Counted from the first letter of the stretch, positions 3,012 to 35,500 are shown. The stretch is DNA of 64,000 bases from Candidatus Hodarchaeota archaeon (GCA_048887165.1 JBHLJZ010000004.1:5538-69537), one strand, 5' to 3'. Numbers and translations: made by a program. Notes: generated by a model from the sequence alone, not told the origin.

Positions 3012-3857
3012 ATGGATTTTGAAACTATTAAATTTGAATTAAATGAAAAAGGTATCGGAATTATAACTTTTAATCGACCAGGAAAAGCTAATGCTATGTC
3101 TTTTCAAATGGTTGAAGACCTCCATAGTTTATTTGACCAACTTGAAACCAATCTTGACTGTCGTGTAATAATTATGCGAGCAGAAGGCAATGTTTTTAAT
3201 GCAGGACAAGATCTAGTTGATGGAGCTATTTTAAAAACCAAAAGGAAGCCAGAACATCTAAAAAAGTTTTTTTATATTGATGTTCCTGACGTTGTAAAAA
3301 GTTGTATGTATTACCAATGGCGTATAGCAGAACTCATAGTAAAAATGAGAAAGATCTCACAACCTATAATTGCTATGATCAACGGGGCTGCTATTGGAGC
3401 AGGATTTTCCTTAACCATGGCCACAGATATCCGTATTGCAACGAAAAAAGCAAAATTTAATGCCGCTTATATTAAATTTGGATTAACTGGTTCTGATATG
3501 GGCAGTAGTTATTTTCTTCCAAGACAAATTGGAATGTCAAAAGCAACAGAATTATTATATACAGGACGGTTTTTTGATGCTGAAGAAGCTGAAAAAAATG
3601 GATTTGTATTAAAAGTTGTAGAAGAAAATGAATTGTTAACTGCTGCTGTGGAGCTGGCCCAAAATATGTTACATAAGAGTCCTCTGGGATTACGCATGAC
3701 AAAACAAGCTATTAATTTATCAATGGATTCACCTAGTTTGGAAACGATTATCCAAATTGAAAACCGCGGTCAAATACTCTGTAGTATGTCAAATGATGTT
3801 ATGGAAGGATTAAAAGCGTTTTATGAAAAGAGAGATCCCCAATTTCCACTAAGATAA
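3012..3857 (+). CDS. Crotonase (enoyl-CoA hydratase/isomerase) superfamily protein, paralog 1, atypical active site
   Basis: 281 aa. Crotonase core ...INGAAIGAGFSLTMATDIRIA...FGLTGSDMGSSYFLPRQIG... Clearly paralogous to 3900-4754 and 5652-6497, with the shared N-terminus M(D/N)FE(T/S)IKFEL. Confidence 0.85.
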   Translation: MDFETIKFELNEKGIGIITFNRPGKANAMSFQMVEDLHSLFDQLETNLDCRVIIMRAEGNVFNAGQDLVDGAILKTKRKPEHLKKFFYIDVPDVVKSCMYYQWRIAELIVKMRKISQPIIAMINGAAIGAGFSLTMATDIRIATKKAKFNAAYIKFGLTGSDMGSSYFLPRQIGMSKATELLYTGRFFDAEEAEKNGFVLKVVEENELLTAAVELAQNMLHKSPLGLRMTKQAINLSMDSPSLETIIQIENRGQILCSMSNDVMEGLKAFYEKRDPQFPLR

Positions 3858-3899
3858 TACAAAAAAAGATGATTAATTTTAAAATAAAGAGTGATAAAC

Positions 3900-4754
3900 T
3901 TGAATTTTGAAAGTATAAAATTCGAATTGAAGGAAAATGGAATAGGAATTCTAACTCTAAATAGACCAGAAAAATTGAATGCAATGTCTTTTCAAATGAT
4001 TCAAGATTTACATACAATACTCGATCATTTAATGGTCAATTTGGATTGTAGAGTACTTATATTAAAAGCAGAAGGACGGGCATTTTGTGCTGGTTTAGAT
4101 TTGAAGGAATCGATGGTACTTCAATCAAAAAAGAAACCTCCTGAGTTAAAAGAAAAATTCCCTTTTTTAAATGCTCCTGATAAAGATATAATAAAAGCTA
4201 AAATGTATGGTCAGTGGCATACCAGTCAAGTTATAGTAAAAATGCGCAAAATTAGTCAACCTGTTATAGCTATAGTCAATGGAGCTGCATCAGGTGCAGG
4301 ATTTGCTTTTGCATTAGCAGCGGATATTCGAATTGCAGGCAAAAATGCACGATTTAATAATGCATTTATTAATGTTGGATTTTCTGGTGCGGATTTAGGA
4401 AGTAGCTATCATTTACCTCGACTTATTGGTATGTCAAGAGCAACAGAGATTTTATACTCAGGACGATTTGTTGATGCTGAAGAGGCAGAAAAAATTGGCT
4501 TAGTTTTAAAGGTTGTTGAAGATGAAAAATTACTTGATACAGCAATGCAAGTAGCGGAGAATATGCTCCATAAAAGTCCCTTAGGATTACGCATGACTAA
4601 ACAGGCGATTAATATCTCTCAGGATTCTCCTAGTCTGGAAACATTGCTTCAATTAGAAAATCGTTCCCAAATGCTCTGTTCAACTTCAGATGACATCATG
4701 GAAGGTGTTCAATCATTTTTCGAAAAAAGAGACCCTAAATATCCTTTAAGATAA
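3900..4754 (+). CDS. Crotonase superfamily protein, paralog 2
   Basis: The track ORF starts at GTG 3891. TTG 3900 gives MNFESIKFEL, which matches the N-termini of the two paralogs and follows a GAGTGA SD-like motif. Core: NGAASGAGFAFALAADIRIA...VGFSGADLGSSYHLPRLIG. Confidence 0.85.
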   Translation: MNFESIKFELKENGIGILTLNRPEKLNAMSFQMIQDLHTILDHLMVNLDCRVLILKAEGRAFCAGLDLKESMVLQSKKKPPELKEKFPFLNAPDKDIIKAKMYGQWHTSQVIVKMRKISQPVIAIVNGAASGAGFAFALAADIRIAGKNARFNNAFINVGFSGADLGSSYHLPRLIGMSRATEILYSGRFVDAEEAEKIGLVLKVVEDEKLLDTAMQVAENMLHKSPLGLRMTKQAINISQDSPSLETLLQLENRSQMLCSTSDDIMEGVQSFFEKRDPKYPLR

Positions 4755-4791
4755 ATCTAAATTTTACTACAATTATAATTTTTTGTTTTAA

Positions 4792-5619
4792 ATGAATAGC
4801 AAATTACTTCCAAGGAATATCTACCAGAACTATATAAAAAATAATATCAGCAGAGCTGAAGTCATCACACTTTTGGGTTCCTATATTGAAAATAGTCATA
4901 ACTTAGATCTTAGACTTGAAAGTTTAAATTTTTTAAATAAATTAGAGGAAAAAACTAAATCTATTTTTAAGATTCTTGAAACATGTCTTATATCTGATGA
5001 AAATGAGGAATTAAGAGTAATAGCAATGGAAGCGTTATTCAGAAATTACCAAAACGAGAGTTTTGAATCTTTAAAATGGACAATACTTAATGATAAATCA
5101 TCTCTAGTGCTACAAGCTATAAAAAATATTATAGAAAAGGGGGAAATTAAACATTCTGAAGATTTCAAAAAAATTTTTAATGAAAGATTTCAAAAAATTG
5201 CAAAAAATTATAATATAACGATTCAAGAGGTTCCAGTTCTCATCGATTTGAGATTTAATTTAGTTAAAAGTATTTATTCTGATTTCATCTATGATAACTA
5301 CTCGATATGTGTGATTAGAAATAATTATATTAGAGAACTAAGTTTATCTTTTAAAAGTTCATTACCTGAATCAATAGGTTCTTTAAAAAAGTTAGAAACT
5401 TTAGATTTGAGATGTAATAATTTATCTTCGTTACCAGAATCATTAAGCCATCTAAAAAAGCTAAGATATCTCAATTTAAGTTGGAATAATTTTACTCATA
5501 TTCCCAAATTTTTGACCAAAATGGATTCTCTTGAATTTTTAGATTTAAGTAATAATAATATTAAAAATATTCCAGAATCGATTAAAAAATTGAAAAGATT
5601 AAAGACTCTTTTTTATTAA
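4792..5619 (+). CDS. HEAT/ARM-like plus leucine-rich-repeat (LRR) protein
   Basis: 275 aa. The C-terminal half holds consecutive ~23-residue LRRs (LKKLETLDLRCNNLSSLPESLSH / LKKLRYLNLSWNNFTHIPKFLTK / MDSLEFLDLSNNNIKNIPESIKK / LKRLKTL). The N-terminal half is helical and repeat-like. Confidence 0.7.
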   Translation: MNSKLLPRNIYQNYIKNNISRAEVITLLGSYIENSHNLDLRLESLNFLNKLEEKTKSIFKILETCLISDENEELRVIAMEALFRNYQNESFESLKWTILNDKSSLVLQAIKNIIEKGEIKHSEDFKKIFNERFQKIAKNYNITIQEVPVLIDLRFNLVKSIYSDFIYDNYSICVIRNNYIRELSLSFKSSLPESIGSLKKLETLDLRCNNLSSLPESLSHLKKLRYLNLSWNNFTHIPKFLTKMDSLEFLDLSNNNIKNIPESIKKLKRLKTLFY

Positions 5620-5651
5620 TATAAATAATAATTATACTTTTGAGAAATAAA

Positions 5652-6497
5652 ATGAATTTTGAAACAATTAAATTTGAGTTAAAAGAAAATGGAATTGGTA
5701 TATTAACCCTTAATCGTCCTGAAAAACTCAATGCAATTTCATTCCAAATGGAAGAAGAATTACATGAGCTATTAGATTACTTAATGATTAATTTGGATTG
5801 CCGAGTTCTAATTTTAAAAGGTGAAGGTCGAGCCTTTTGTGCGGGAACAGATCTTCAAGAAGGATTGATATTAAATTCTAAAAAACAACCTGCTGGTTAT
5901 GAAAAATTTTATTATTTGAATATATCAGAACCAGTAAAAAGAAAGATGTATCATCAATGGAGAATCAGTCAAATCTATATTAAAATGCGAAAGATTAGTC
6001 AGCCAATCATATCGCTAATTCATGGAGCTGCTGTTGGAGGAGGATTTGGATTTGCTATGGCTTCAGATATACGATTTGCGAGTGATGATGCGAAATTTAT
6101 TAACGGTTCAATAAACATTGGATTAACAGGGGCAGATGTAGGAGGAAGTTATTTTCTACCTCGTTTAATAGGAATGGCGAGAGCTTCTGAGATTTTATAC
6201 TCCGGTAGAAATGTGGATGGAAGAGAAGCCGAGAAAATAGGCTTGGTATTTAGAACCGTTGAAAAAGAGAAACTATTAGAAGTAGGTTTGGAAAAAGCAG
6301 AAGAATTGCTAAAGAAAAGCCCATTAGGCTTAAGAATGACTAAACAAGCTATTAACTTATCAATGGACTCACCAAGCTTGGAAAATATTTCACAATTTGA
6401 GAACTCATCTATTGTTCTTACTTTTAGCTCAAAAGATGTTATGGAAGCTTCAAGTGCTTTTTTTGAGAAAAGAGATCCAAAATATCCACTTCGCTAA
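5652..6497 (+). CDS. Crotonase superfamily protein, paralog 3
   Basis: The track ORF starts at TTG 5640. ATG 5652 gives MNFETIKFELKENGIGILTLNRPEKLNA, colinear with the paralogs. Core: HGAAVGGGFGFAMASDIRFA...IGLTGADVGGSYFLPRLIG. Confidence 0.85.
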   Translation: MNFETIKFELKENGIGILTLNRPEKLNAISFQMEEELHELLDYLMINLDCRVLILKGEGRAFCAGTDLQEGLILNSKKQPAGYEKFYYLNISEPVKRKMYHQWRISQIYIKMRKISQPIISLIHGAAVGGGFGFAMASDIRFASDDAKFINGSINIGLTGADVGGSYFLPRLIGMARASEILYSGRNVDGREAEKIGLVFRTVEKEKLLEVGLEKAEELLKKSPLGLRMTKQAINLSMDSPSLENISQFENSSIVLTFSSKDVMEASSAFFEKRDPKYPLR

Positions 6498-10465: not shown

Positions 10466-12112
10466 ATGGCGAAAACAAGAACGATAATTTTAAATATTAT
10501 AATAATAGGTATAGCGACTGCAGTCATCTTGATTATCGTAGATATTGCTACCAATTTTTTTGGTAATAGGGATGAACTTCTCCGTTTTTTTAGTCCTTTC
10601 CTTGATTTGGAGAGCTTTTTATCGATATTTAGTATGATTTTTGGTCTCTCACATATTCCTCTTTCAATTATTTTTAGCCTAATTCTTATCTGGAAAAGGA
10701 ATAAAATAAAGGCTTACCCATTTGTCTTAGTAATTTGGATATATCCATTACTTACTTTTTTACCTTTATTTATACCAGTAATGATGGGTCCAGTTGATAT
10801 GTATGAGATGTATACCACTTTCTATTCTTACTTATTTGTAAGTTTTCTTACAATAATTTTACCTGCATTAATTGTTACAATTATAGCATTTTTATTCAAG
10901 AAAAAGAAAAAAGGAATAAAAAGGGAAAGAGTCGGGGAAATAAGTATTAGAGCACCAACAGCTGCCATAAGTTTTCCATTAGAAAGAGAATTAATATTTA
11001 TCAGCTATGCAACAGTCGATTCTAATTTTTTTCAAATTCCAAAACTTACGAGAATATTGACTAGTTATCCAGAAATTGACGAAATTCTTTACTGGGAGTC
11101 AGATATGCACGATGATATTTATAGATATATGGATACTAATCTAAAAAGATGTAAAGTAGTACTTTTATTTTGCTCTAAAAATTCTCTTTATTCCGAAGCA
11201 GTCAATATGGAATGGAGTTCGGCATTAAAATTGAATAAACGGATTATCCCTGTATTTGTAAACCCAGATGACATACCTGCTTTATTAACAACCAAATTAG
11301 GAGTTCAATTTAATGTGAATGATCCTTTTTCTTCAATTGAGGACATTTACAACATGATATTAAAGAAATTAGAAGTTGAATCTGTTCGAGAATTTACACG
11401 TTATATTATACCAAAATGGATAAAAGCAGAGGACTTTTATCTTCAACTTCCTCTTGAAGAGACGGTTGAAGAGACCTTAAGTTTTGAAAGTGATTTTCCT
11501 TCAATTGAATTAGGGATTCAAATTGGATCAATTCTACAGAATAATAATTTTCATGTTCCAGGACTAAAAAAAGCTCTTAAGGCAAAGAAAAAGAAAAAAA
11601 AGAAAGATTCTTCTGAATTAACTGAGGAATCTGAATTTACAAAATTTACTTCTTTTGCGGAATTGCGAGATGATCCAGAAAATGTCGCAATTTTAGTTAA
11701 AATTGAAGAGATAACAGAAAATACTAGTAATGTTTTACTTAATTTAAAAGGAAAAAGAAGTTGGGTGTTAAAAGAAATCTTGAAAGATATCGATCTAAAA
11801 TTAATTGAATTAAAAAGTAAAACAGAGCTTATTCGTAATTATTCCGGAAATGTTATTTCTTTAATGAAAGATTTAACCGATCTCGAAAGGTTCTTAAGAA
11901 AACATCTAGGTTCAAGTATTAAAAATATTGAAGAGCTTATCAAACAATATAAAAACAAAGAAATTGATGAGGAAGAATTTATTATTAAAGGTACTCAATC
12001 CGTCGGAAAGGATTTTATTATAGTATTTCTTAGAAACATTTCTTTAATCCTAAAGGAAAAGAAACAAATAATAGAAAGTAGACCACCTAGTCAAACTCAA
12101 ATTGCATTTTAA
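10466..12112 (+). CDS. Polytopic membrane protein with a cytoplasmic TIR domain and a C-terminal coiled-coil region
   Basis: 548 aa. The N-terminal ~150 aa carry about 4-5 TM helices followed by KKKKKGIKRER. TIR_2-like block (nt ~10991-11370): IFISYATVDS...RCKVVLLFCSKNSLYSEAVNMEWSSALKLNKRIIPVFV. Poly-Lys linker, then a helical tail. Confidence 0.6.
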   Translation: MAKTRTIILNIIIIGIATAVILIIVDIATNFFGNRDELLRFFSPFLDLESFLSIFSMIFGLSHIPLSIIFSLILIWKRNKIKAYPFVLVIWIYPLLTFLPLFIPVMMGPVDMYEMYTTFYSYLFVSFLTIILPALIVTIIAFLFKKKKKGIKRERVGEISIRAPTAAISFPLERELIFISYATVDSNFFQIPKLTRILTSYPEIDEILYWESDMHDDIYRYMDTNLKRCKVVLLFCSKNSLYSEAVNMEWSSALKLNKRIIPVFVNPDDIPALLTTKLGVQFNVNDPFSSIEDIYNMILKKLEVESVREFTRYIIPKWIKAEDFYLQLPLEETVEETLSFESDFPSIELGIQIGSILQNNNFHVPGLKKALKAKKKKKKKDSSELTEESEFTKFTSFAELRDDPENVAILVKIEEITENTSNVLLNLKGKRSWVLKEILKDIDLKLIELKSKTELIRNYSGNVISLMKDLTDLERFLRKHLGSSIKNIEELIKQYKNKEIDEEEFIIKGTQSVGKDFIIVFLRNISLILKEKKQIIESRPPSQTQIAF

Positions 12113-12130
12113 ATTCAATTTCTATTGTTC

Positions 12131-12138
12131 TTTTTTTT
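12131..12138 (+). terminator. Oligo-T tract, candidate archaeal intrinsic terminator
   Basis: T8 run located 19 nt after the stop codon at 12112. Confidence 0.3.
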
Positions 12139-12235
12139 ATAAAATATTTTATAATCTAAAAGAGAAATTTTTTTCACTTTTGGATTGATATTAAGAATTA
12201 TACAGAAAATTAGCTATTTTAAGGTTAGAAAAATC

Positions 12236-12769
12236 ATGGAACAAAAAACTATGTCTGAATCGAAAGTTGAAATCGCTCAGGTTATGTATCCAGAGCATGC
12301 TAACCCTGCTGGAAATGTTCATGGTGGACATATTTTAAAACTCATTGATCAAGCTGGGGCAATTGTTGCAGCAAGGCATACACACAAGAATGTAGTGACA
12401 GCTTCTGTGGATAGAATGGATTTTATCTCTCCCGCTTATGTTGGTAATCTCGTATTTGCAAAAGCATCACTAAATTATGTGGGCAGAACATCTATGGAAG
12501 TGGGAGTCAGAGTTGAAGCAGAATGTTTAAGAACTGGTAGGCATACACATATTGCTACTGCGTACCTTACTTTTGTAGCTTTAGATGAGGATGATAATCC
12601 CACTGAAGTTCCTATCCTCATTCCGGAAAAAGAAGATGAAAAGCGTCGTTATGAAGAAGCTAAAAAAAGAAGAGAACTACGAATCAAAAAAAGAAGGGAA
12701 CATGAGCATCCAGAAGAACCGTGTATCGTAAGACCTAGTAAACTAATTGAATCTGAAAAAAATAATTAA
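12236..12769 (+). CDS. Acyl-CoA thioesterase (hotdog fold, YciA/Acot-like)
   Basis: Motif MYPEHANPAGNVHGGHILKLIDQAGAIVAARH. The track start is TTG 12185. ATG 12236 (MEQKTMSESK) is more plausible. Basic/acidic C-terminal tail. Confidence 0.8.
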   Translation: MEQKTMSESKVEIAQVMYPEHANPAGNVHGGHILKLIDQAGAIVAARHTHKNVVTASVDRMDFISPAYVGNLVFAKASLNYVGRTSMEVGVRVEAECLRTGRHTHIATAYLTFVALDEDDNPTEVPILIPEKEDEKRRYEEAKKRRELRIKKRREHEHPEEPCIVRPSKLIESEKNN

Positions 12770-12910
12770 TTTTTTCCTTATCCTTATATATTTTAAGTTA
12801 TTACAGTTGTGTAAAGATTTTTAAAGATATATAACCTAATCAATAATTAACAATCCAATGTATTAACTTAATTATATCAAAAATCTTAAAGCCAAATTTG
12901 GTGCATTTCA

Positions 12911-14545
12911 TTGAAAAAAGGGAAGATACTATTTTTCAGTTTATATATTTCTGGTCTTTTTTTATTGCTATTTATTCCACTTATTTGGGGAAATTTTTTT
13001 TCTAACTCGTGGTTTTATCATTTAGGAGATTCTTTTAGCTCGGTAGCAATTTCTTCTGATGGGGAATATATAGTAGCTGGGGCTTTTAATGGTAGAGTAT
13101 ATCTCTTCGATAAGGATAGCAGAAAACCACTATGGTCTTATGAAACTGGTCATGAAATAACATCAGTAGCCATTTCATCTAATGGTGATGATATTGTTGC
13201 TGGTAGTAGGGATCGAATGGTTTATATGTTCAATAAGTTAGTTTCCACCCCTTTATGGAGTTATAATACTGGAGCAGATGTGTTATCTGTTGCAATATCT
13301 TCTGATGGTAATTATCTCGTATCCGGAAGTGAAAATGGTAATGTTATCCTATTTGAGAAATCCAGTTCTACTCCCTTATGGAGCAATTCGACAGGATACG
13401 AGATAAAAAATTTAGATATCTCGTCTGATGGACAAAATATTGTTGCAATAGGACAATTTTTTACATTTTATTTATTCAATAAGACAAGTCCTATTCCTGA
13501 ACTTAGTTATTCTCTAACCGATTACCCTATTTCAGTAGCAATAAGCTCAGATGGAAAGTCTATTGTCGCCGGTACTGTAGATGATAAAGTATATTTATTT
13601 AGCAACTCTAGTTCTACTCCTCTATGGACATATAGTGGGTACGACGAAATTCGTTCCGTGTCGATTTCCTCAAACGGACAATATATTGCGGCGGGAGGTT
13701 TAGGTCAATATGTTTATTTTTTTGAAAATTCAAGTTCCACCCCATTATGGACCTATAGAACGTTTAATAATGTAGAATCTGTTTCTATATCATCAAATGG
13801 AGATTATTTAGCTGCAGGTACTTTTGGCTCTGGAGAACAACAAAAATCATATTGTTTTCATAAATCAAGTCAATCTCCTTTATGGACTGTCCAAGGTGGA
13901 GGGAAAACTGCAATTTCCTCAAATGGAAAATACATTGCCTCCATACCAGGCCTTAAATTATTCTTCTTTGAAGTAGAGAGCCAATTTAATCTTTCTGATT
14001 TTAATACTTATACAATGATTGTTTTGACTATTGGGGGTGTGGGATTAGTCATTTCTATAATTGTTGTTGTTGCAAGAAGGAAGAAACTAAAAGCGAGAGG
14101 CATTCGAGTATTTATCAGCCATGCTGTAGATGATTTCAGTAAATATAGAATAGAAGAGATAGCTAAGTACTTAGAATCCCATCCAGAAATTAATCATGTA
14201 TACTACTGCGAAGAAGACCTTACGGGAAATATAGATGACTGGATGAGAAAAACTGTTCCAAGGTGTCAACTTTTAATATTTTTCTCAACAGAAAATGCTT
14301 TGAAGTCAGAAGATTGCATGAATGAATTAAAAATAGCACGTAAGCTCAATATTCAAATTACTCCTGTTTTAGGAGTTAATTTAAAATGGGAAGATTTAGA
14401 AAACTTGAATATTAACCGGGAACTTGGACAAGAATTTGATCCAATGGAATTTGATCAATTTAAAGAAAGTATCTATAATTATATCATAAAATTCGCTCAA
14501 GATCTAGAAAAAGAAATCCTTGAGAAAAAAAAAATTAAAAAATAA
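12911..14545 (+). CDS. Type-I membrane protein: 8-bladed beta-propeller-like ectodomain, single TM, cytoplasmic TIR domain
   Basis: 544 aa. N-terminal signal/anchor. Eight ~40-aa repeats (SVAISSDG.YIVAG...VYLF...S.PLW.Y). TM helix MIVLTIGGVGLVISIIVVVA followed by RRKKLKAR. TIR block from nt ~14105: RVFISHAVDD...RCQLLIFFSTENALKSEDCMNELKIARKLNIQITPVLG. Confidence 0.7.
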   Translation: MKKGKILFFSLYISGLFLLLFIPLIWGNFFSNSWFYHLGDSFSSVAISSDGEYIVAGAFNGRVYLFDKDSRKPLWSYETGHEITSVAISSNGDDIVAGSRDRMVYMFNKLVSTPLWSYNTGADVLSVAISSDGNYLVSGSENGNVILFEKSSSTPLWSNSTGYEIKNLDISSDGQNIVAIGQFFTFYLFNKTSPIPELSYSLTDYPISVAISSDGKSIVAGTVDDKVYLFSNSSSTPLWTYSGYDEIRSVSISSNGQYIAAGGLGQYVYFFENSSSTPLWTYRTFNNVESVSISSNGDYLAAGTFGSGEQQKSYCFHKSSQSPLWTVQGGGKTAISSNGKYIASIPGLKLFFFEVESQFNLSDFNTYTMIVLTIGGVGLVISIIVVVARRKKLKARGIRVFISHAVDDFSKYRIEEIAKYLESHPEINHVYYCEEDLTGNIDDWMRKTVPRCQLLIFFSTENALKSEDCMNELKIARKLNIQITPVLGVNLKWEDLENLNINRELGQEFDPMEFDQFKESIYNYIIKFAQDLEKEILEKKKIKK

Positions 14546-14557
14546 ATGAAAAAATAA

Positions 14558-14580
14558 TTTTTTTTAAATTTTCTTTTTTT
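14558..14580 (+). terminator. Oligo-T tracts, candidate archaeal terminator
   Basis: T8 (14558-14565) and T7 (14574-14580) directly after the stop at 14545. Confidence 0.35.
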
Positions 14581-14841
14581 AAAATTCTTCTTCAGATGGA
14601 ATATATCAAATAGGAAAAATAAGTTTACTTTGAACTTAGAATTATGGATAGCAAGGCCCATTGAATTTTAAACTTATATTCTAAATATTTGTTTCAGAAA
14701 AAAGTATACTTGTGCTTAATTTACGCCTAAATTGTTTTTTTAAGTAAATGATGTCAAATTTTAAATCTTAACAAAAGCGTTAAATACTCTTTAGTCAAAT
14801 ATTGAATATTAAAATTAAAACATAAATGCTAACTTTTAATT

Positions 14842-17800
14842 ATGTCCAAAACAAATCAAAAAAAATTGCAAAATTATAAAGCCTTAATCGTTGTTTTTTT
14901 AATCTTGGCGATTTATACTGAAATTACCATTATAGGTATTAACATAGCTCCCTTAGATAAGGCTAAAGAGATAGATGTAAAAAGCTATATTTCTCCAAAA
15001 ACAAGTTCACAATCAGTTTCACCCGTAGAACTTGGTCAATATTATGATGAATACAATTATACTAACGATGTGTTTGTGGATGGAGACATTGCTTATATAT
15101 CAGATTTTAAAGATGGTTTGGAAATTATTAATGTAAGTGATCCTACTAATCCTACAAAATTAGGGAATTATACTACTAGTAATTGGGCCAAAAGTGTATT
15201 TGTATCAAATGATGTTGCATACATATCAATTGGATCCAGTTGGGATAGGCATATGGAAATTATTAATGTAAGCGATCCAACAAATCCAGTATTGTTATCT
15301 ACTATAACAGATTTTGGAAATTCAGTATTTGGTCAGGATGTCCTTGTTTCTGGAGGCATAGCATACTTAGCTGATTCTATGGAGGGTCTAGTAATATATA
15401 ATGTCAGTAACCCTTCTAATCCTAAATTCTTAAGTAAGCTAGGTGATTCTAATAATTTTTCTAGAAGTATTAAGATAGCTGGTAATATTGCTTATTTAGT
15501 TGAATGGGAAGACGGATTAGAAATTATAAACGTAAGTGATCCATATCATCCCGAAGAGATAACGAATTTTAATGATGGAGGGGGTTATTGGGATATAGCG
15601 ATAGAAGGAGATTTAGCCTATATAACAGATTTAAATGGTGGATTTAGAATCTTTGATATAAGTGATCCAACTAATCCTAAGAAATTATGTTATTTTAATG
15701 AAGGTGATACATCAGCATCAGGAATTTCGATATTCGGAAATATTGCTCTCCTATCAGCAGGATCTAATGGTACAAAAATAATTGACATAAGTGATCCATT
15801 CAATCCATATAAATTAGGGGTTTATAACGATGGCGGCTCATCTGCAGCTACATTTATTTCAAGAAATTTAATTTATGTGGCAGATCGAACTGATGGGTTA
15901 GAAATTATAGATCTTAACTTTCAAACAGGGCAATGGTTAACACCCTCTTTATTAAGTAAATGTGGTGATGATTATAATAATACTCAAAATGTGTTTGTTT
16001 CTGGTGACATCGCATATGTATCAGATGATGCTGATGGATTGGAAATTATTAATGTAAGTAATCCCTTTAGCCCTGTACTTTTAGGAAAATTTGGAGATTC
16101 TTATAATAGTACCATGAATGCATTCATTTCTGATGAGATTGCCTATATAGCCGATGAAAATGATGGTTTAGAAATCGTTAATGTAAGTAATCCTTCTAAT
16201 CCTTATGAAATTGGATATTTTAATGATGGGGGTATAGTTCAGGATGTATTTATCTCTGGTGGTATTGCATATGTTTTAGATGCGGTAGACGGATTAGAAA
16301 TTGTTAATATAACTGATCTCACAAATCCGACAGAAATAGGTGAGCTAGGTACCATTCCGCTTTGGTGTTTTGATATTGCTGTTTATGGGAATATTGCTTA
16401 TATAGCTACTGAAAGTGGAATGGTTATAGTTGATGTGAGTAATTCTTCAAATCCTATAATGTTGGGTAGTTATTATGACGGAGGAATTAGTGTTTGGGGC
16501 AGTGCTATTAGCTTTTATAATGATATAGTTTACTTTACTGAGGGCGCTCATGGTTTAGAAATGATTGATGCGAGTAATTTAAGTTCACCTAAATTACTAG
16601 GAAAATTTGGAAATGGTACATACCCAGACAATAATTCGAAGGGAATTTTTATTTCGGGAAATTTTGCTTATATTGCAGATGATAATGACGGATTAGAAGT
16701 AGTTGATGTAAGTGATCCAAGCAATCCTATTGAAGTAACAAGTTTTAATGATGGTGGGATTGCAAATGGTGTATATTTTTCGAAGAATATAGTATATATT
16801 GCTGATGAAGAACAAGGTTTAGAAATTATTGATACAGGATTAGATAATGATGATGATGGGCTAAGCAATGTAGAAGAATTTATTACATACTCAACTAATT
16901 TAAATAATGCAGATACAGATGGAGATAATATCAATGATTTCGATGAAATTAATACATATTCTACTGATCCCAATGATGATGATAGTGATGATGATAATCT
17001 TAACGATGGAGAAGAATTAATATTTTCTACTGATCCCAATGATGATGATAGTGATGATGATGGGTTAAATGATGGAGCTGAAGTGAATACGTATTTTACT
17101 GATCCAAATGATAACGATCACGATAATGATGGTATATTAGACGGAGAAGAGACAATAGCAGGCTCAGATGGATATATAACTAATCCAACTGATAATGATT
17201 GCGATGATGATGGATTGCTAGACGGAGCAGAAACAATAACTTATCTAACGAATCCATTAAATCCAGATTCTGATTATGATGATTTACCTGATGGCTGGGA
17301 AGTCCAACATTCACTCAATCCAAATTCACCCAATAGAAACGAAGACCCAGATGTAGATGGTTTAACTAATTATGAAGAATTTCAGCATGGAACGGATCCC
17401 AGATTAGAAGATACTGATGGAGATGGGTATTCAGATGGCGCTGAAGTAGCTGCTGGCACAGATCCTTTGGATCCTAACAACTTTCCATTCAGTATTTGGG
17501 ATTTTTTTAGAAGATTTGGATTATTAATTGGAATTGCTGTTATTTCTGTGGCAATTGTAGCTGCTGTTGCTATTCGAAGGAAATCAATCCAAGCTAAAAA
17601 ACTCCGAGTTTTTATAAGCCATGCTGTTGATGACTTTAGAAGTTATAGAATTGCTGATATTGCTAAATTTCTCGAATCACAAAAAGAAATCTCTCATGTA
17701 TATTATTGTGAAGAAGATCTAGTAGGGAACATTGATGACTGGATGAAAAAAACAGTACCTCGTTGTCAGCTTTTAATTTTCTTTTCAACAGATAAATCAT

Positions 17801-18057
17801 TAAATTCAATGGATTGTATGAATGAAATCAATCTTGCTCGAAAACATGGTTTACAGATTACCCCTGTCTTAGGAATTAATTTAAGATGGGAAGATTTAGA
17901 AAAGTTAAATGTAAATAGAGAACTTGGAAAGGAATACGATCCGATGCAATTTGAAAAATTATGTAATGAATTATATGGCTATGCTTTAAAATTCAAAGAA
18001 GATTTAGAAAAAGAAGCTCAAGAAAAAAAAAATGATAGAAAAAGAATGAAAAAATAA
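14842..18057 (+). CDS. Type-I membrane protein: LVIVD-repeat beta-propeller(s), TSP3-like Ca-binding repeats, single TM, cytoplasmic TIR domain
   Basis: 1071 aa. N-terminal anchor. About 12 repeats of the form A.(I/V).D..DGLEI(I/V)NVS(D/N)P.NP..LG (LVIVD-type). D-rich DxDxDG..D.(E) repeats (nt ~16840-17490). TM helix LLIGIAVISVAIVAAVAI followed by RRK. TIR block from nt ~17605, about 70% identical to that of 12911-14545. Confidence 0.75.
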   Translation: MSKTNQKKLQNYKALIVVFLILAIYTEITIIGINIAPLDKAKEIDVKSYISPKTSSQSVSPVELGQYYDEYNYTNDVFVDGDIAYISDFKDGLEIINVSDPTNPTKLGNYTTSNWAKSVFVSNDVAYISIGSSWDRHMEIINVSDPTNPVLLSTITDFGNSVFGQDVLVSGGIAYLADSMEGLVIYNVSNPSNPKFLSKLGDSNNFSRSIKIAGNIAYLVEWEDGLEIINVSDPYHPEEITNFNDGGGYWDIAIEGDLAYITDLNGGFRIFDISDPTNPKKLCYFNEGDTSASGISIFGNIALLSAGSNGTKIIDISDPFNPYKLGVYNDGGSSAATFISRNLIYVADRTDGLEIIDLNFQTGQWLTPSLLSKCGDDYNNTQNVFVSGDIAYVSDDADGLEIINVSNPFSPVLLGKFGDSYNSTMNAFISDEIAYIADENDGLEIVNVSNPSNPYEIGYFNDGGIVQDVFISGGIAYVLDAVDGLEIVNITDLTNPTEIGELGTIPLWCFDIAVYGNIAYIATESGMVIVDVSNSSNPIMLGSYYDGGISVWGSAISFYNDIVYFTEGAHGLEMIDASNLSSPKLLGKFGNGTYPDNNSKGIFISGNFAYIADDNDGLEVVDVSDPSNPIEVTSFNDGGIANGVYFSKNIVYIADEEQGLEIIDTGLDNDDDGLSNVEEFITYSTNLNNADTDGDNINDFDEINTYSTDPNDDDSDDDNLNDGEELIFSTDPNDDDSDDDGLNDGAEVNTYFTDPNDNDHDNDGILDGEETIAGSDGYITNPTDNDCDDDGLLDGAETITYLTNPLNPDSDYDDLPDGWEVQHSLNPNSPNRNEDPDVDGLTNYEEFQHGTDPRLEDTDGDGYSDGAEVAAGTDPLDPNNFPFSIWDFFRRFGLLIGIAVISVAIVAAVAIRRKSIQAKKLRVFISHAVDDFRSYRIADIAKFLESQKEISHVYYCEEDLVGNIDDWMKKTVPRCQLLIFFSTDKSLNSMDCMNEINLARKHGLQITPVLGINLRWEDLEKLNVNRELGKEYDPMQFEKLCNELYGYALKFKEDLEKEAQEKKNDRKRMKK
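16959..17061. repeat. 66-bp-period tandem repeat inside the TSP3-like coding region
   Basis: The 37-nt string ttctactgatcccaatgatgatgatagtgatgatgat occurs perfectly at 16959-16995 and again at 17025-17061. It encodes STDPNDDDSDDD. Confidence 0.9.
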
Positions 18058-18185
18058 ATAAATCTATTATTTTTTATTTTATAACAATATTAATTTTAAG
18101 TATCAATATTTCCAGTATAATTTAATAGAAAATAATTTATTTTTGTTCTAAATTAAGAAATAAAATAAAATAAAATTTAAATTTT

Positions 18186-19916
18186 TTAGAAGACGCCTGC
18201 ATCTTTTAAAATTTGTTTATGATCAAAAGCTAAATCCATAGTTTTTACTTTTTCAATTGGAATTGCTTCGGCAACTTTTGCGTCATCTCCACCTGCTAAC
18301 AATGTGAGATCTTTGACTAACCTGCATTTAAATGCAGTTGATACAATTCTTCCTCGAGGATCCCGACCTTTTTGATCATATGTCCCTATTTTTTTTACTA
18401 CTTCAACAGCAAGGTTAGTTTCTTCTCTTACTTCTCTTACGACCGCTTGTTCGGCGTTTTCATTATACTTAATGAAACCACCAGGTAGAGCATACTTACC
18501 TTTATAAGGATGATATTTTCTTTTGATTAATATTATATTTCGATTTTTATCCTCTATAACGGCATCTACAGTATAACCCTTCTCTTCCACTTTTGCTTTT
18601 AATCGATGTAATACAAAATAAGTTAATGTACCTATAAACATCAACCCAATGATCGTCGTTGCTAATAAATAAGATATTATGACAAATTGACTTTTTGTAG
18701 GATCTGTGCCTAGAATTAGAACATCAAAAAAATCTTTCACGATTCCAGCACTTAATATTATATTTACTAGATATAATATCCTTGTTGTAACCTTTTGATT
18801 CTTTTCATTTCTTTGAAGATAGAATTCTTGCATAGAATCATATAGCATCTTGAATTTTTCATTAACTCTCTCTATAATAGTTTCAATACGATAACCTTTT
18901 ATAAGATGGGTTAAAACTCGTGTGTAATGCTCACGTGGATTCCAATCTAATTCGCTGTAAATAAGACTCATTTTGGTTTGAATCATTCCTCGTAAAAATC
19001 TAAGATTATTAGTCTTATGTTCTATTGTTTCCAGACTCATAAAAACATCTGAATAACGTTTCATAAATAAAATGTCCAGTGAATTATTAATCGTCATGAG
19101 TGCGAAAAGAACAGCTCTTATTTTTGGAGTTGGTTCTAATATATGTTCTTTTATATAGGGAAACTCTGTGTTATAGTTATGTTCTGCCATGTAAATAAAT
19201 CCAGAATTTCTTTGAATATAATGCAGTTCAGAGACGCGATTAGAGAAATTCTTTTTTGTCCTTCTTTCAAAAAGTTCATCAGAATAATCGCCCCATTGTC
19301 CTGAATATACGCGAGTCCAATATCCAAGAACTTCTTTATACCTTTCTATATTTTTTGCATCCCACTGGACTTCTATAGGGCTAGTTTTATTTGATATTAA
19401 GAACACATATATTGGACTCTCGGTATCTATAAGGAGAAATTCATTTTCTCTTCTATTACTAAAGTCTTTAAGAATATCAAGAACAATATAGGGTATCTGT
19501 TGGATTAAATCTGGTGTGATCTTTTCTTTTTTATATGGCTCATTTTTAAAATATTCAATTTCAAATTTAAAATATCCTAAGGTGTTATAAACTAAATCTC
19601 GATAGTCTTCAGTATAAGGTCTATTTTCGTCAGTATAAGGAAAATTCTGGAAGAAAGGTTCCCAATCACATTCAATAACTATTGATTTGGCCATTTCTCT
19701 TAAAATGGTCTTCTTCTCTTCAGCATAAGGATATTTCTCTAAAAATATGAAGGATTTTGCTAGTTCTTCATCACTAAGATTCTTTAATTTTTCCAAAAGG
19801 AATGCTTCTATTTCTTCCGCCTTAGTTTCTCCAATAAACTCATTCGTATTTATGAAAGCACTGATATACCAAAATTCTTTTCCGTAAATAAAACGTAAAT
19901 TTTCTTCCATTTTCAA
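18186..19916 (-). CDS. Fusion protein: ~380-aa unknown cytoplasmic domain, two TM helices, C-terminal Nudix hydrolase (ADP-ribose pyrophosphatase-like)
   Basis: 576 aa. Near-canonical Nudix box GGFIKYNENAEQAVVREVREETNL (Gx5Ex7REUxEExxU). Flanks KGKYALPGG and DPRGR are typical of COG1051-type ADPRases. TM helices ILYLVNIILSAGIV and FVIISYLLATTIIGLMFIGTLTYFVL. Confidence 0.75.
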   Translation of the reverse strand: MKMEENLRFIYGKEFWYISAFINTNEFIGETKAEEIEAFLLEKLKNLSDEELAKSFIFLEKYPYAEEKKTILREMAKSIVIECDWEPFFQNFPYTDENRPYTEDYRDLVYNTLGYFKFEIEYFKNEPYKKEKITPDLIQQIPYIVLDILKDFSNRRENEFLLIDTESPIYVFLISNKTSPIEVQWDAKNIERYKEVLGYWTRVYSGQWGDYSDELFERRTKKNFSNRVSELHYIQRNSGFIYMAEHNYNTEFPYIKEHILEPTPKIRAVLFALMTINNSLDILFMKRYSDVFMSLETIEHKTNNLRFLRGMIQTKMSLIYSELDWNPREHYTRVLTHLIKGYRIETIIERVNEKFKMLYDSMQEFYLQRNEKNQKVTTRILYLVNIILSAGIVKDFFDVLILGTDPTKSQFVIISYLLATTIIGLMFIGTLTYFVLHRLKAKVEEKGYTVDAVIEDKNRNIILIKRKYHPYKGKYALPGGFIKYNENAEQAVVREVREETNLAVEVVKKIGTYDQKGRDPRGRIVSTAFKCRLVKDLTLLAGGDDAKVAEAIPIEKVKTMDLAFDHKQILKDAGVF

Positions 19917-20109
19917 TTGCCCTCAAATAAATTATATTAGACAAATGATTAAATTATTATTAAATTGTTATTCTATTTATTACTTTTTTTTTTTCTAATC
20001 TAAAAATTATTATTAATTCTCTTCAAAATGATTTTAGCAATCTTTTTTTATAATTGAGTTTAATTAAGTTTAATAATAAAATCTAACAAATTTTTAAAGG
20101 AAAATTACG

Positions 20110-32567: not shown

Positions 32568-35500
32568 TTATTTTTCTTTGTCATCCTTTAAACCTTCTTC
32601 CTCTAATAATGAATCTAAATCAGTAACTTTTTCTTTTATAGTTTCTTTGGGTTTTTCTTTCTTTTTTTTAATTGTAATCTCTTCTTCGGGTTCTGTTACC
32701 TTTTCTAACTCAGAAACTTTTACATACTTACCTCTTCGTGGTCTTCTTTTACTAACCTCTTCAACTGGAGTTTCTATACGCTTGATTGTTCTTTTAGTAA
32801 AGAGATACATTAAACCCCATACTATTATAAAAACTCCAAGGATTATTACCATAAAGAATGATGTAAGATAACTAGATAGAGGAATATCGAAAGTCTGAAA
32901 TACATTAGATGCTTCAAAATTAATAATTTCATCAGTCAGAATATTTTGGGCATCGATAGATATATTTATTTCTAATTCATTGATAATTGGGATATCAACT
33001 TCTAATATGAGATATGTTGACTCATTAGGAGAAAAGTGGTTTAGAATTATGTAATTTCTTTCTACAATTGAATATTCTAAATTAGGTGTTATAATGACAT
33101 TAATATCAATAACTCTAAGAATAGAATTTCCAATATTTGTTAGACTTAATTTAAATGTTGATAGTTTATTTCGATAGATAAATGGTACATTTTTATTTAA
33201 CGAGATAGAAATGTTATTTGATACTCTAAATAGATCAACAGTAATATTTTGTGATTTGCCTAGAATGTATATGTCACCACTCCAAATAAAGCTAAAAAGT
33301 AACTGATCTTCATTATCTAGCGTCAAAGAGTCAATCTCGAAGTTAACTAACCCATTTATATCAGAAAATTGTGATGAAATGTTAATCCATGAAGTATTAT
33401 TGTAATATCGACAAGTAACATTTTCATTTGGAAGGATCTGACCAAACTCAGTTGATAAAAATCCCGAAATGTTAAAGATGGATCCCTTTAACGGAGTTTC
33501 TGGATTAATAGATATATTTATAAATTTACTATTTGTTTTAAGTGCAAAAGAATCGATAAATTGATTATAACTGCTTACATAATTCTTATCATATATATTT
33601 ACTAAAAATGTCGTCTGATTTGGGAGATAAACACACTCATTTCTTTGAAAAGGTTTTAATATTGAAGCTCCTGTTATTTCTTTATCATATTTCAATGCTA
33701 TAATATATCCTTCAAATTCACTTTCCGTACTATTTACTAATAAAGCATAATTATCACTTTCAAAGATTCCAATTTCATGATATTCTCCACTTGATTCAAA
33801 ATAAATAGTCACTATCGTCTTAGCTCCTCCTTTTCTAACTGGTGCATTTTGACCTGGCCAGAAATCATCAGGCTGAAGAGTGGGCATTGTTAATTGTACA
33901 CTGAATTCTTGAATATCTCTACCTAAAGGGTCTCCCTTTAATTTTAGTGTTTTAGTACTAGAGGTTTGTTGATCAATAATCCATTCTTCATTCGATAAGG
34001 ATACAAGTTTGATATCTACATATATGTCCAAGTCAATAAGTTCATGCATATTTTGAATAGAAACATTGATTATGATATTTTCATTAGGATTTAAGATGGT
34101 TTCGTTTTGTAAAAATGACTTAAGCACAATTGGGATGTCATCCATACTCATTTCATAAACATATTCCTCGTTTACATTTGATTCATTTACAGGGAAAAAA
34201 TTTGGAATGTAAGTTCCAGTAGTCTCATTCACAGTTGCTATTAAAATCGAATAATTATCATAAACACGATCAACAAGTCCGTCTAAAACATTTTGATCTT
34301 GTAGTTCTTGATAAAAGAAATCATCCAGACTGACATTATAAGAATTGATATATAACTTTAACTTTTTACATCCTAAAGCAGATCCGTTACTCCAAAAGTA
34401 ACCTAAATAATAATTTCCGATAACTGGTAAGGTATCGTCAATATTAAGAATGATATCATTATTGAAATCATAAAAGAGTGATCCTTCTTTGAGATAACCA
34501 CTATTATCATTAAATTGTTTCCAAATAGTCTTATTTTTAGGATAAAATAAATATACTGTCGCAGAGCCAGTCGCAGGTGCTAAATTATTATGGTCCCTAA
34601 TTTCAAGCCCTGTTGTCATATTATCTCCATTCATAAATCCATTTGTTTCCCAAAAGTTGCTATTATATTTTAAATAACTATGCATCTCATATACAAGATT
34701 AGTGCTGTTTAGTTGAAGAGAATATAATCCAGAAATATTATTGGTAATATTATACGTAACAATTGATACTTCAAAGCTATGATTATCAGCTAAATTAAAT
34801 TCTCCGCCAGTCTCATTAACTATAAGATCGTAGATCTCATCATTATTTGGGTTTGTTAGGTTGTGTGCATAATAATCATCTGGATAGACGAACCAAAATT
34901 CAAGATAATCCCAGTTATCAAAATTTTTATATCCTAAATCTAAAGTATAGTTTAACGTCCATTCTGGAGTTCCGTCATAACTTACATTATAAGTGCTTAA
35001 AGCATCTTCTATCCAGTATGCTTTAACTGAATAACTAACATTAAATTCAAATCCTTTTATAATACTATTATTCCAAGAAAGGTCGACTTTAAAATTATTG
35101 AATCCGTCACTTATTATAGGGACTGTGAGATTGTTATTCCAGCGACCCAAACCCCACGTAAGATATGAACTTTCATTATATGGATAAGAACTAATAGTTT
35201 GATTTTCTATGGGAAGATCTTGGATATTCAAGTTGTCATCTTCAGACATAATAAAATCGGAAGGCATATAACCTCTTGTAACGTTGATTTTAAACGAACT
35301 AGCATCTAACTGTTCTGAAAAATAAATAGTTGTTTCAACATTCTTTCGAGCATTACTCCAAGATTGACCATTATCTGTGGTTTTCTTTAATTGATGATCT
35401 GTAATTTGATCAGGATCCCCAAAAGTAACCCTAGGCAAAGAAACTAAGCTGTAGATCTTTTCAGCACTGTCAGATTTAATTACTATAAAGTAATTATAGA

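Follow-up and report, generated by a model that had tools for sequence, protein, structure and literature searches.

Membrane TIR proteins beside a membrane-anchored ADP-ribose-type Nudix protein in a Lokiarchaeial chromosome point to an undescribed NAD-derived signalling or defence module

Characterised prokaryotic TIR domains work on NAD+, and among Nudix domains those of the NrtR type sense ADPR and those of the NadM type hydrolyse it (PMC9503650). In plants, signalling by the nucleotides that TIR enzymes make is limited by a Nudix hydrolase, which breaks down TIR-derived nucleotides; the Nudix protein NUDT7 restrains TIR/EDS1 signalling (PMC9153377). For the Asgard archaea, a survey of defence systems lists Rst_2TM_1TM_TIR (PMC11291487).

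The locus described here lies on a Lokiarchaeial chromosome, in a stretch of 64,000 nt that was analysed as a whole and is called the window below; the source organism belongs to the Promethearchaeota, i.e. the Asgard archaea, as an earlier note made from the sequence had suspected. Three genes (P1, P3 and P4) encode TIR proteins and a fourth, convergent gene encodes a membrane-anchored Nudix protein of ADP-ribose type, and all four ORFs are present at the coordinates and on the strands given below, with no TIR ORF in the remaining 48 kb of the window. Because the TIR–Nudix pairing has been kept in related genomes through many rearrangements, this arrangement suggests a module for NAD-derived signalling or defence that has not been described before. 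Our best explanation, held as a whole with moderate confidence, is that a chromosomal TIR–Nudix module specific to Lokiarchaeia is represented in the window by its accessory half. The widespread core is a triad of a 4-TM protein (smallTM), a cytosolic WD40-TIR protein of ~1225 aa and the Nudix protein, and P1, P3 and P4 are variable accessory TIR genes, not the conserved TIR partner of the Nudix protein.

The locus resembles Thoeris in that a Glu-bearing TIR protein is genetically linked to a protein with a domain that binds or processes nucleotides of the ADPR family, and P1 scores above the Pfam ThsB_TIR threshold (24.9 vs 21.2 bits). However, there is no counterpart of ThsA, either as a SIR2-SLOG or as a Macro-TM protein: Pfam and PADLOC scans of all window neighbours and of the core proteins found no SIR2, SLOG or Macro domain, in agreement with the earlier remark that no known Thoeris-type effector is visible. 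PADLOC-DB v2 calls no catalogued anti-phage system for the window or the core proteins either, and its sole matches are a generic Nudix-domain match to PDC-S07, one WD40 match and marginal ThsB matches (E = 0.001-0.04) from which no system is called. The TIR domains here are fused to large sensor domains and membrane anchors and are partnered with a catalytically intact Nudix domain, and the genes are chromosomal and vertically inherited, not island cargo.

The pairing of TIR and Nudix recalls the plant TIR/NUDT7 system, a likeness shown at superfamily level only: the plant genes are not linked, NUDT7 is a soluble protein and the TIR domains are of PF01582 type on NLRs, whereas here they are of TIR_2 type on membrane or WD40 proteins, and the Nudix protein is membrane-anchored with a novel N-terminal domain (N-domain). 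NadM-Nudix and NrtR come nearest to the Nudix domain in both sequence and fold and have a GRDPRG-type motif in common with it, and the family is, like NrtR, associated in genomes with NAD biosynthesis genes (nadA); nevertheless, in place of an NMN adenylyltransferase or DNA-binding domain the protein has a ~380-aa domain followed by a 2-TM hairpin. Rst_2TM_1TM_TIR and further candidate systems of the TM+TIR type are likewise small multi-gene sets of TM proteins and a TIR protein, but they are without a Nudix component, and no PADLOC model matches P1, P3, P4, WD40-TIR, smallTM or the Nudix N-domain. In the literature searched, no published system matching the TIR–Nudix module was found.

With Toll-like receptors, P3 and P4 share the order of parts (ectodomain, single TM helix, cytoplasmic juxtamembrane TIR), and the TIR fold matches MyD88, MAL and TLR15 at TM ~0.55-0.6. 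The Toll-like layout that the earlier note saw in two of the proteins stands as regards topology, but not as regards the ectodomain, which has no LRR and is a WD40/PQQ-like propeller in P3 and made of LVIVD and TSP3 repeats in P4. Furthermore, the TIR domains are of TIR_2 type and keep the catalytic-position Glu, there is no MyD88-like adaptor, and identity to animal TIR domains is 15-19%. The resemblance is topological only and is no evidence of ancestry. Asgard LRR-TIR relatives, for their part, are without a TM helix.

TIR proteins of the window

P1 (548 aa; 10466..12112, plus strand) consists of four TM helices (aa 2-147, nt 10469-10906; hydropathy and positive-inside flanks), a cytoplasmic TIR domain (aa 177-286, nt 10994-11323) with Glu E249 at nt 11210-11212, and a C-terminal domain of ~250 aa with no Pfam match and no known family. 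Pfam places TIR_2 at aa 177-283 (51.1 bits, cut-off 28). The P1 TIR belongs to the same subfamily as that of the WD40-TIR core protein (43-47% identical), and P1 orthologues adjoin the Nudix gene in L011 (89%) and L021 (79%). The P1-type TIR with its C-terminal module also forms the end of proteins of 1400-1800 aa.

P3 (544 aa; 12911..14545, plus strand) carries an N-terminal signal or anchor, a WD40/PQQ-like beta-propeller ectodomain (WD40, 95 bits in Pfam), a single TM helix (aa 365-390, nt 14003-14080; hydropathy), a juxtamembrane cytoplasmic TIR domain (aa 396-516, nt 14096-14458; Glu E472 at nt 14324-14326; TIR_2 at aa 400-487 with 32.6 bits, cut-off 28) and a C-terminal helix, and its orthologues adjoin the Nudix gene in L011 (92%) and L017 (64%). 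P4 (1071 aa; 14842..18057, plus strand) has an N-terminal anchor, 12 LVIVD repeats that make up beta-propellers (294.9 bits in Pfam), TSP3 calcium-binding repeats (TSP3_bac, 46 bits), a single TM helix (aa ~890-914, nt 17509-17583; hydropathy) and a cytoplasmic TIR domain (aa 919-1039, nt 17596-17958; Glu E995 at nt 17824-17826); an orthologue adjoins the Nudix gene in L011 (73%). The TIR_2 match of P4 (aa 923-1011) is, at 27.1 bits, slightly below the Pfam cut-off of 28, and the P4 tail is 67% identical to that of P3 and scores 200 bits on the TIR subfamily HMM.

These scores agree with the earlier description of three same-strand genes with TIR_2-like domains, P4 falling just under the cut-off, and the TIR motifs then picked out are real and form part of near-invariant columns of the family. 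Basic stretches (KKKKKGIKRER, RRKKLKAR and RRKS) stand right behind the last TM helix before each TIR domain, so that by the positive-inside rule all three TIR domains are predicted to be cytoplasmic, as had been proposed; together with hydropathy, the rule predicts type I topology for P3 and P4, with ectodomain, single TM helix and cytoplasmic TIR.

The fold was modelled for the P3 tail: the AF2 model (pLDDT 87.8, pTM 0.83) has a flavodoxin-like TIR fold, and its best Foldseek matches are PdTIR, MyD88, MAL, SPARTA TIR-APAZ, RPS4, BtpA and AbTir (E ~1e-4, probability 1.0), with the TLR15 TIR also among the matches. The Glu of SEDCMNEL, SMDCMNEI and SEAVNMEW is invariant, being present in 50/50 aligned family members and in every Nudix-adjacent TIR. 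By Pfam alignment and by weak profile matches (E = 0.1 and 1.5, respectively), its column corresponds to the E in the HKEL stretch of C. elegans TIR-1, the orthologue of SARM1, and to the E in DWCWDEL of Cat1; these are the catalytic Glu positions, which in NAD+-cleaving TIRs lie in the helix behind the third strand. Within the limits of these E-values, the first two segments do carry a catalytic-position Glu as had been suggested, and the TIR domains of P1, P3 and P4 are putatively NAD+-cleaving.

The membrane-anchored Nudix protein

The Nudix gene (paralogue A, 576 aa; 18186..19916, minus strand) is convergent with P4 across a gap of 128 nt and, given this orientation, is not co-transcribed with the TIR genes in the window. 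Since the orthologues begin MEENL, translation probably starts at the ATG at 19910 and not at the TTG at 19916. The protein consists of the conserved N-domain of ~380 aa, which is without known family (aa 3-380, nt 18777-19910, minus strand), a 2-TM hairpin (aa 383-436, nt 18609-18770, minus strand; hydropathy) and the Nudix domain (aa 448-571, nt 18204-18575, minus strand; NUDIX 69.1 bits, Pfam cut-off 21.1). The Nudix box, GFIKYNENAEQAVVREVREETNL (nt 18411-18479, minus strand), follows the consensus G-x5-E-x7-R-E-U-x-E-E-x-G-U (PF00293) with only the final G replaced, by N, and the GRDPRG motif begins at aa 517. Orthologues form more than 120 full-length clusters; GRDPRG is intact in every orthologue, and the box is intact in all members of paralogue A and of a paralogue B that is 42-50% identical to A and has the same architecture.

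The best NCBIfam matches of the Nudix domain are NadM-Nudix and NrtR, all with scores far below the equivalog cut-offs, and the PDB sequence and fold matches are NadM-Nudix and NrtR with ADP-ribose (among them 2qjo, 2qjt, 3gz5 and 3gz8). The domain is thus closest to the NadM-Nudix/NrtR ADP-ribose enzymes, in the sense of similarity and not of equivalog membership, which is in line with the earlier description of an ADP-ribose-pyrophosphatase-like Nudix domain joined to two TM helices and an unfamiliar domain of about 380 aa. The AF2 model of the protein has a pLDDT of 74.6. Across 19 members, the N-domain and TM region have no consistent Pfam match at E <= 5 and no PDB profile match better than E = 0.36; assignment of this part to SLATT, CorA or a channel family was discarded for want of HMM or profile similarity.

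Gene linkage and the missing core pair

A TIR ORF lies at most 1.5 kb away in 16 of the 20 paralogue-A loci that have at least 2 kb on both flanks (Nudix identity 65-88%), a strongly positive outcome for the conservation of the neighbourhood, and this linkage persists over five gene orders and two unrelated genomic contexts. For paralogue B, no TIR was found in any of the 13 stand-alone loci (183.6 kb covered). As an independent tie of the family to NAD metabolism, nadA is the neighbour of paralogue A or B in 13 loci. Searching reciprocally from smallTM, WD40-TIR is always the next gene, and a Nudix gene of the same family flanks the pair in all informative metagenome loci (7/7). None of the parts of the module occurs on viral contigs, and their evolutionary rates resemble those of housekeeping genes, which fits core signalling better than classical mobile defence.

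In the window, however, the core pair has been lost. Three-way DNA alignment places a deletion scar in the spacer between the Nudix gene and AAperm (19917..20109), which is chimeric, made up of parts of both spacers bordering the smallTM + WD40-TIR cassette of L011, the closest relative and the reference for this comparison: the AAperm-proximal part matches L011 5200-5390, the Nudix-proximal ~95 nt are nearly identical to L011 9760-10020, and the cassette itself (L011 5376-9773) is missing. The window has thus lost smallTM and WD40-TIR by a clean ~4.4-kb deletion, keeping only the accessory TIR genes. The possibility, raised in the earlier note, that the four genes form one system is supported by the conserved linkage, but the window does not contain the whole system.

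A candidate mechanism and its alternatives

We propose that the membrane TIR proteins may cleave NAD+ and that the adjacent Nudix protein may hydrolyse the ADPR-type product, an account read from sequence that could about equally well hold or fail; to the observed domain identities, topology, conserved Glu and Nudix box and conserved gene linkage it adds, by inference, that the TIR domains are NADases, which product they make and that the Nudix protein hydrolyses it. Specifically, P1 (polytopic), P3 and P4 (beta-propeller ectodomain, single TM helix, juxtamembrane TIR) would be membrane sensors in which a stimulus leads to clustering of the TIR domains, and these would cut NAD+, yielding ADP-ribose or an ADPR nucleotide in cyclic or modified form. 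The Nudix domain, held at the same membrane by the 2-TM hairpin, would hydrolyse this product, thus clearing or resetting the signal and returning the fragments to NAD metabolism. The cytosolic WD40-TIR and the 4-TM protein, the pair deleted in the window genome, are the partners of this Nudix protein in most relatives.

Some observations sit uneasily with a simple clearing hydrolase: the model gives no role to the large and highly conserved N-domain, the Nudix gene is convergent in the window, and four paralogue-A loci have no TIR neighbour.

It is doubtful, if conceivable, that the Lokiarchaeia possess a vertically inherited membrane pathway with an NAD-derived second messenger, in which surface receptors of Toll-like topology with an enzymatic TIR, together with the cytosolic WD40-TIR, would write an ADPR-type signal and a dedicated membrane Nudix protein with its novel N-domain would both read and erase it. 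If true, the archaea most closely related to eukaryotes would offer a prokaryotic precedent for TIR receptors that signal across a membrane, and also for ADPR signalling coupled to a Nudix protein in the manner of TIR/NUDT7 or ADPR/TRPM2.

The Nudix protein could also be an effector or receptor in a Thoeris-like system and not an off-switch, which we regard as unlikely; a TIR-made ADPR derivative would then bind the Nudix domain or the N-domain, and oligomerisation of the 2-TM part would cause membrane permeabilisation or ion flux. The ThsA Macro-TM effectors offer an analogy, and TRPM2 is gated by ADPR through its NUDT9-homology Nudix domain. Within the core triad, the Nudix protein and smallTM are the sole effector candidates, and in many loci smallTM, WD40-TIR and Nudix follow each other in this order on one strand with gaps of 50-200 nt. 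Dozens of polar and aromatic residues are invariant in the N-domain, and the long helices after it extend into the TM hairpin; NrtR, moreover, shows that this Nudix clade can sense ADPR (PMC9503650), 3gz8 being among the best fold matches. On the other hand, every member has a fully intact catalytic box, unlike Nudix domains that are dedicated sensors; conservation within the protein is lowest in the TM segments; no similarity to SLATT, CorA or any channel family is seen; and paralogue B is built in the same way but has no TIR partner.

Quite improbable, in our estimate, is a reading of the Nudix protein as a general enzyme of ADPR/NAD turnover in Lokiarchaeia, at a local gene-accretion spot where TIR genes would gather because the site tolerates insertions or shares regulation, with no dedicated product-substrate relationship. 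The adjacency of nadA, seen for both paralogues, also allows such a housekeeping NAD-salvage role. Four well-flanked paralogue-A loci (L001, L014, L016 and L018) have no TIR neighbour, and therefore the Nudix protein can work without an adjacent TIR; accessory TIR content also varies among the closest relatives (window, L011, L073 and L001), and TIR fragments in L019 and L048 suggest turnover. Mere accretion, however, accords poorly with a variable space beside the Nudix gene that holds only TIR genes and smallTM and no other cargo, with TIR genes on either flank and retained in both genomic contexts, with a paralogue B that sits in the same Hexapep-nadA slot and never has TIR neighbours, and with a triad that is conserved to the same degree as its housekeeping neighbours.

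Very improbable is that the TIR domains are non-enzymatic scaffolds for protein-protein assembly like those of animal TLR/MyD88, with a functionally unrelated Nudix protein: scaffold TIRs (MyD88, MAL, TLR15) are among the best Foldseek matches and the topology of P3 and P4 is receptor-like, but the catalytic-position Glu is invariant across subfamilies as divergent as the P1 and P3 types (32% identity), the neighbourhood conserves no adaptor-like partner made of a TIR alone, the model would not account for the conserved linkage to a Nudix of ADPR type, and characterised prokaryotic TIRs act on NAD+ (PMC9503650).

A gene that the earlier note passed over lies between P1 and P3 and encodes a 4HBT (hotdog-fold) acyl-CoA thioesterase (12185..12769, plus strand; PF03061, 69.5 bits; YciA-like), which is a backbone gene and probably not part of the module. 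It is missing from the L011 cluster, its position relative to the TIR genes varies in L021, L031 and L073, and in L001 it lies directly between the Nudix gene and OsmC, without TIR genes.

TIR proteins and membrane Nudix protein of the window

All four open reading frames that the earlier note had claimed are found exactly as described: P1 (10466-12112, + strand), P3 (12911-14545, +), P4 (14842-18057, +) and the convergent Nudix gene (18186-19916, -), whose start is probably the ATG at 19910. A 4HBT thioesterase gene, left out at that first reading, lies between P1 and P3. TIR domains had been proposed for all three same-strand products, and the Pfam model TIR_2 detects them with 51.1 bits in P1, 32.6 bits in P3 and 27.1 bits in the P3-like tail of P4, the last just under the cut-off of 28 bits; P4 is counted as a TIR protein because this tail is 67% identical to that of P3 and scores 200 bits on the subfamily HMM. 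Neither the P1 nor the P3 TIR region had a meaningful match in a single-sequence search of PDB sequences. For the P3 tail, the fold is supported by AF2 modelling (pLDDT 87.8); with this model Foldseek returns PdTIR, MyD88, MAL, SPARTA TIR-APAZ, RPS4, BtpA and AbTir.

By hydropathy, P1 has four TM helices, and P3 and P4 each have an N-terminal anchor and one TM helix. Basic residues follow the last helix ahead of each TIR domain, so a cytoplasmic location is predicted for all three TIR domains, as suggested previously, and for the two soluble portions of the Nudix protein. The Pfam matches make the ectodomain of P3 a WD40/PQQ-like propeller and that of P4 a series of twelve LVIVD repeats with TSP3 repeats. 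The likeness to Toll-like receptors that had been drawn stands for this layout only. Soluble proteins of Promethearchaeota that combine LRRs with TIR_2 (P0227-P0241, ~350-470 aa; TIR 40-50% identical to that of P3) were considered as possible true TLR analogues and rejected, as none has a TM helix and their topology is therefore not Toll-like.

In the family profile an invariant Glu (E472 of P3) is aligned with two residues, each with a weak E-value and each taken here to be a catalytic position: the E of HKEL in TIR-1, the Caenorhabditis elegans orthologue of SARM1, and that of DWCWDEL in Cat1. The conserved residues are E249 in P1, E472 in P3 and E995 in P4, and the column is invariant in 50 aligned relatives and in every Nudix-adjacent TIR found; the Glu noted earlier is retained as the putative catalytic residue.

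The convergent gene does encode a Nudix domain (Pfam NUDIX, 69.1 bits), preceded by a hairpin of two TM helices (hydropathy). Its proposed resemblance to ADP-ribose pyrophosphatases is upheld by NCBIfam, PDB sequence and fold comparisons, which place it closest to NadM-Nudix ADP-ribose pyrophosphatases and the ADPR-sensing regulator NrtR. The protein family comprises more than 120 full-length clusters (55-89% identity), with source names of Lokiarchaeota or Promethearchaeota (the Asgard phylum). Every member has an intact catalytic box and GRDPRG motif, the N-terminal ~380 aa hold many invariant polar residues, and conservation is lowest in the TM hairpin. Membership of the N-domain in CorA, SLATT or other known families was looked for and rejected, no relative being found among Pfam or PDB profiles, and Foldseek with the full-length model returned matches to the Nudix domain only.

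The window gene belongs to the clade that we call paralogue A. Paralogue B (42-50% identity) is a true paralogue, since both occur in one MAG (loci L015 and L039); its examples (L024 11893-13581, -; L028 2500-4188, -; L035-L049) share the N-domain/2-TM/Nudix architecture and the intact box. Loci L020, L041, L050 and L052 carry clearly Lokiarchaeial Nudix orthologues in bins named Woesearchaeota, Nanopelagicaceae bacterium, Odinarchaeota and Hodarchaeota, names that are probably binning or labelling errors.

Linkage of TIR and Nudix genes across relatives

The TIR/Nudix neighbourhood is kept in related genomes. A TIR HMM scan of 42 Nudix loci from named genomes places a TIR ORF within 1.5 kb of the Nudix gene in 16 of the 20 paralogue-A loci (65-88% identity) that have flanks of 2 kb or more on each side. 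The same HMM finds a TIR in none of the 13 stand-alone paralogue-B loci, anywhere in their 183.6 kb in total, and none in the other 48 kb of the window. Only paralogue A is thus associated with TIR genes, and a functional link of some kind between the two is likely.

Precomputed Pfam tables list no TIR beside the Nudix orthologues and no Nudix beside the TIR relatives, and would make the TIR genes unrelated insertions. This reading was overturned when tblastn revealed P1-type TIR ends in the ~1200-aa neighbours that have no Pfam record; in L003, L005 and L006 these are WD40-repeat proteins whose terminal TIR is 43-47% identical to that of P1.

The common core is a triad of a four-TM protein of 146 aa (smallTM), a cytosolic WD40-TIR protein (~1225 aa) and the Nudix protein, which occurs in five gene arrangements and in two unrelated contexts, rSAM-CCG-AAperm...OsmC (as in the window) and Hexapep...nadA. 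A reciprocal search of metagenomes from smallTM always finds WD40-TIR following it, and a Nudix of the same family flanks the pair in all seven informative loci. Remoter smallTM homologues (39-53% identity; L075, L079, L082-L084, L086-L087) have neither WD40-TIR nor Nudix neighbours, so that the four-TM family is broader than the triad. In several genomes extra TIR genes, P1-like, P3/P4-like or of a beta-helix-TM-TIR form, lie across the Nudix gene from this core.

In L011, the closest relative (Nudix 88% identical), the order is rSAM-CCG-AAperm-WD40TIR-smallTM-NUDIX-P4-P3-P1-OsmC-MFS. The window keeps this order minus WD40TIR and smallTM, and the 193 nt between its Nudix and AAperm genes form a chimera of both spacers bordering the missing cassette in L011; judging from this junction, both genes were removed by a clean deletion of ~4.4 kb. 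In L073 (89%) the core pair is present, 4HBT directly adjoins the Nudix gene and P3 and P4 are missing, and in L001 (84%) TIR genes are wholly absent. The gene content of these four loci indicates that accessory TIRs turn over fast among close relatives, the triad itself being widely conserved. Short TIR, P1-like and CCG fragments with a split Hexapep gene beside the Nudix (L019 11813-12653, L048 3559-5285) appear to be remnants of decayed genes and suggest that TIR genes turn over at this site.

Candidate mechanism and its alternatives

TIR enzymes that convert NAD+ to signals have a central place in the immunity of bacteria, plants and animals, and to our knowledge nothing is known of TIR enzyme biology in Asgard archaea. 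The best-supported reading, held with moderate confidence, is that a stimulus would cluster the TIR proteins, that the clustered domains would cleave NAD+ at the membrane, and that the co-localised Nudix would hydrolyse the ADPR-type product. NUDT7 offers a precedent from TIR signalling in plants (PMC9153377), and another is the handling of ADPR by the Nudix domains of NadM and NrtR (PMC9503650).

Alternatively, the Nudix protein might be a signal-activated membrane effector or receptor. This main rival, which we consider unlikely, is favoured by the large conserved N-domain and by the lack of any other effector in the triad; against it speak a catalytic box that is intact, the low conservation of the TM segments and the existence of paralogue B without TIRs. 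NAD housekeeping or a gene-accretion spot agrees less with the data and is rather improbable: the variable space beside the Nudix gene is filled by TIR genes only, which counts against a generic insertion hotspot. That the TIRs are scaffolds also agrees less with the data and is very improbable.

Quinolinate synthase NadA (346 bits) adjoins paralogue A or B in 13 loci, in the second of the two contexts; A and B stand side by side, followed by nadA, in L024 and L028, and in several genomes paralogue B is divergently adjacent to nadA and never has TIR neighbours. This adjacency ties the Nudix family to NAD metabolism independently of TIRs and, together with the housekeeping-like evolutionary rates of the module, suggests NAD-derived signalling as core physiology rather than mobile defence. 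A mobile or viral origin was rejected, as IMG/VR viral contigs hold no relative of the family, tRNA genes are absent from the window and the locus is surrounded by housekeeping genes only. Membership of a known defence system was likewise rejected: PADLOC is negative for all components and, in line with the earlier remark that the locus, if it is one system, has no described architecture, detects neither Thoeris nor Rst_2TM_1TM_TIR nor any other catalogued system.

A survey of Asgard defence mentions neither Nudix nor Thoeris. The literature searched combines Asgard, Nudix and TIR only in a general review of bacterial defence systems, and holds nothing on Lokiarchaeota with TIR domains or matching the TIR-Nudix module. 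What is new is the conserved membrane-Nudix partner with sensor-fused TIRs; TIR-based NAD signalling is of an already known kind. The locus and its relatives define a conserved, experimentally tractable module in which TIRs fused to sensors are combined with a membrane Nudix belonging to the ADP-ribose clade. If the Nudix is a dedicated eraser or reader of a TIR product, TIR signalling would have a terminator or receptor encoded by the host itself, Thoeris-like systems would gain a new effector logic, and the question whether receptor-type TIR signalling is older than eukaryotes could be put to concrete proteins.

Related TIR families and other genes

The P3/P4-type TIR is an Asgard family of 156 clusters, in which the domain nearly always follows a TM helix. 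The dominant architecture (P0144-P0221) is a protein of ~408 aa with about seven TM helices and a C-terminal TIR, of which we know of no description; single-pass forms with big ectodomains are rarer. The P1-type family is much larger (734 representatives), and its TIR with the C-terminal module is also found at the end of proteins 1400-1800 aa long. P1 itself was considered as a smallTM-TIR fusion and rejected, since its N-terminus reaches only -8.6 bits on the smallTM HMM. A third ectodomain-TM-TIR architecture adjoining the Nudix is formed by ~1400-aa proteins (L005 5528-9793, -; L031 2082-6293, -) with a signal/anchor, a NosD/right-handed beta-helix ectodomain, one TM helix, a P1-type TIR and a P1-like C-terminal domain.

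Elsewhere in the window, a 1380-aa ORF (32568-36710, -) has no Pfam match at E <= 1e-5, and in L001 a 1402-aa ORF that lacks a Pfam record is located ~6 kb away from the Nudix gene. A 740-aa protein (47389-49611, +) matches the IFT52 GIFT domain weakly, at a score above threshold (PF23355, 32.7 bits), and also DUF4350, and is possibly a case of a eukaryote-like domain in an Asgard genome. Enoyl-CoA hydratase genes (3012-6497, +) have a small LRR protein (4792-5619) among them, and L001 (13186-15793) shows this ECH-LRR-ECH arrangement too.
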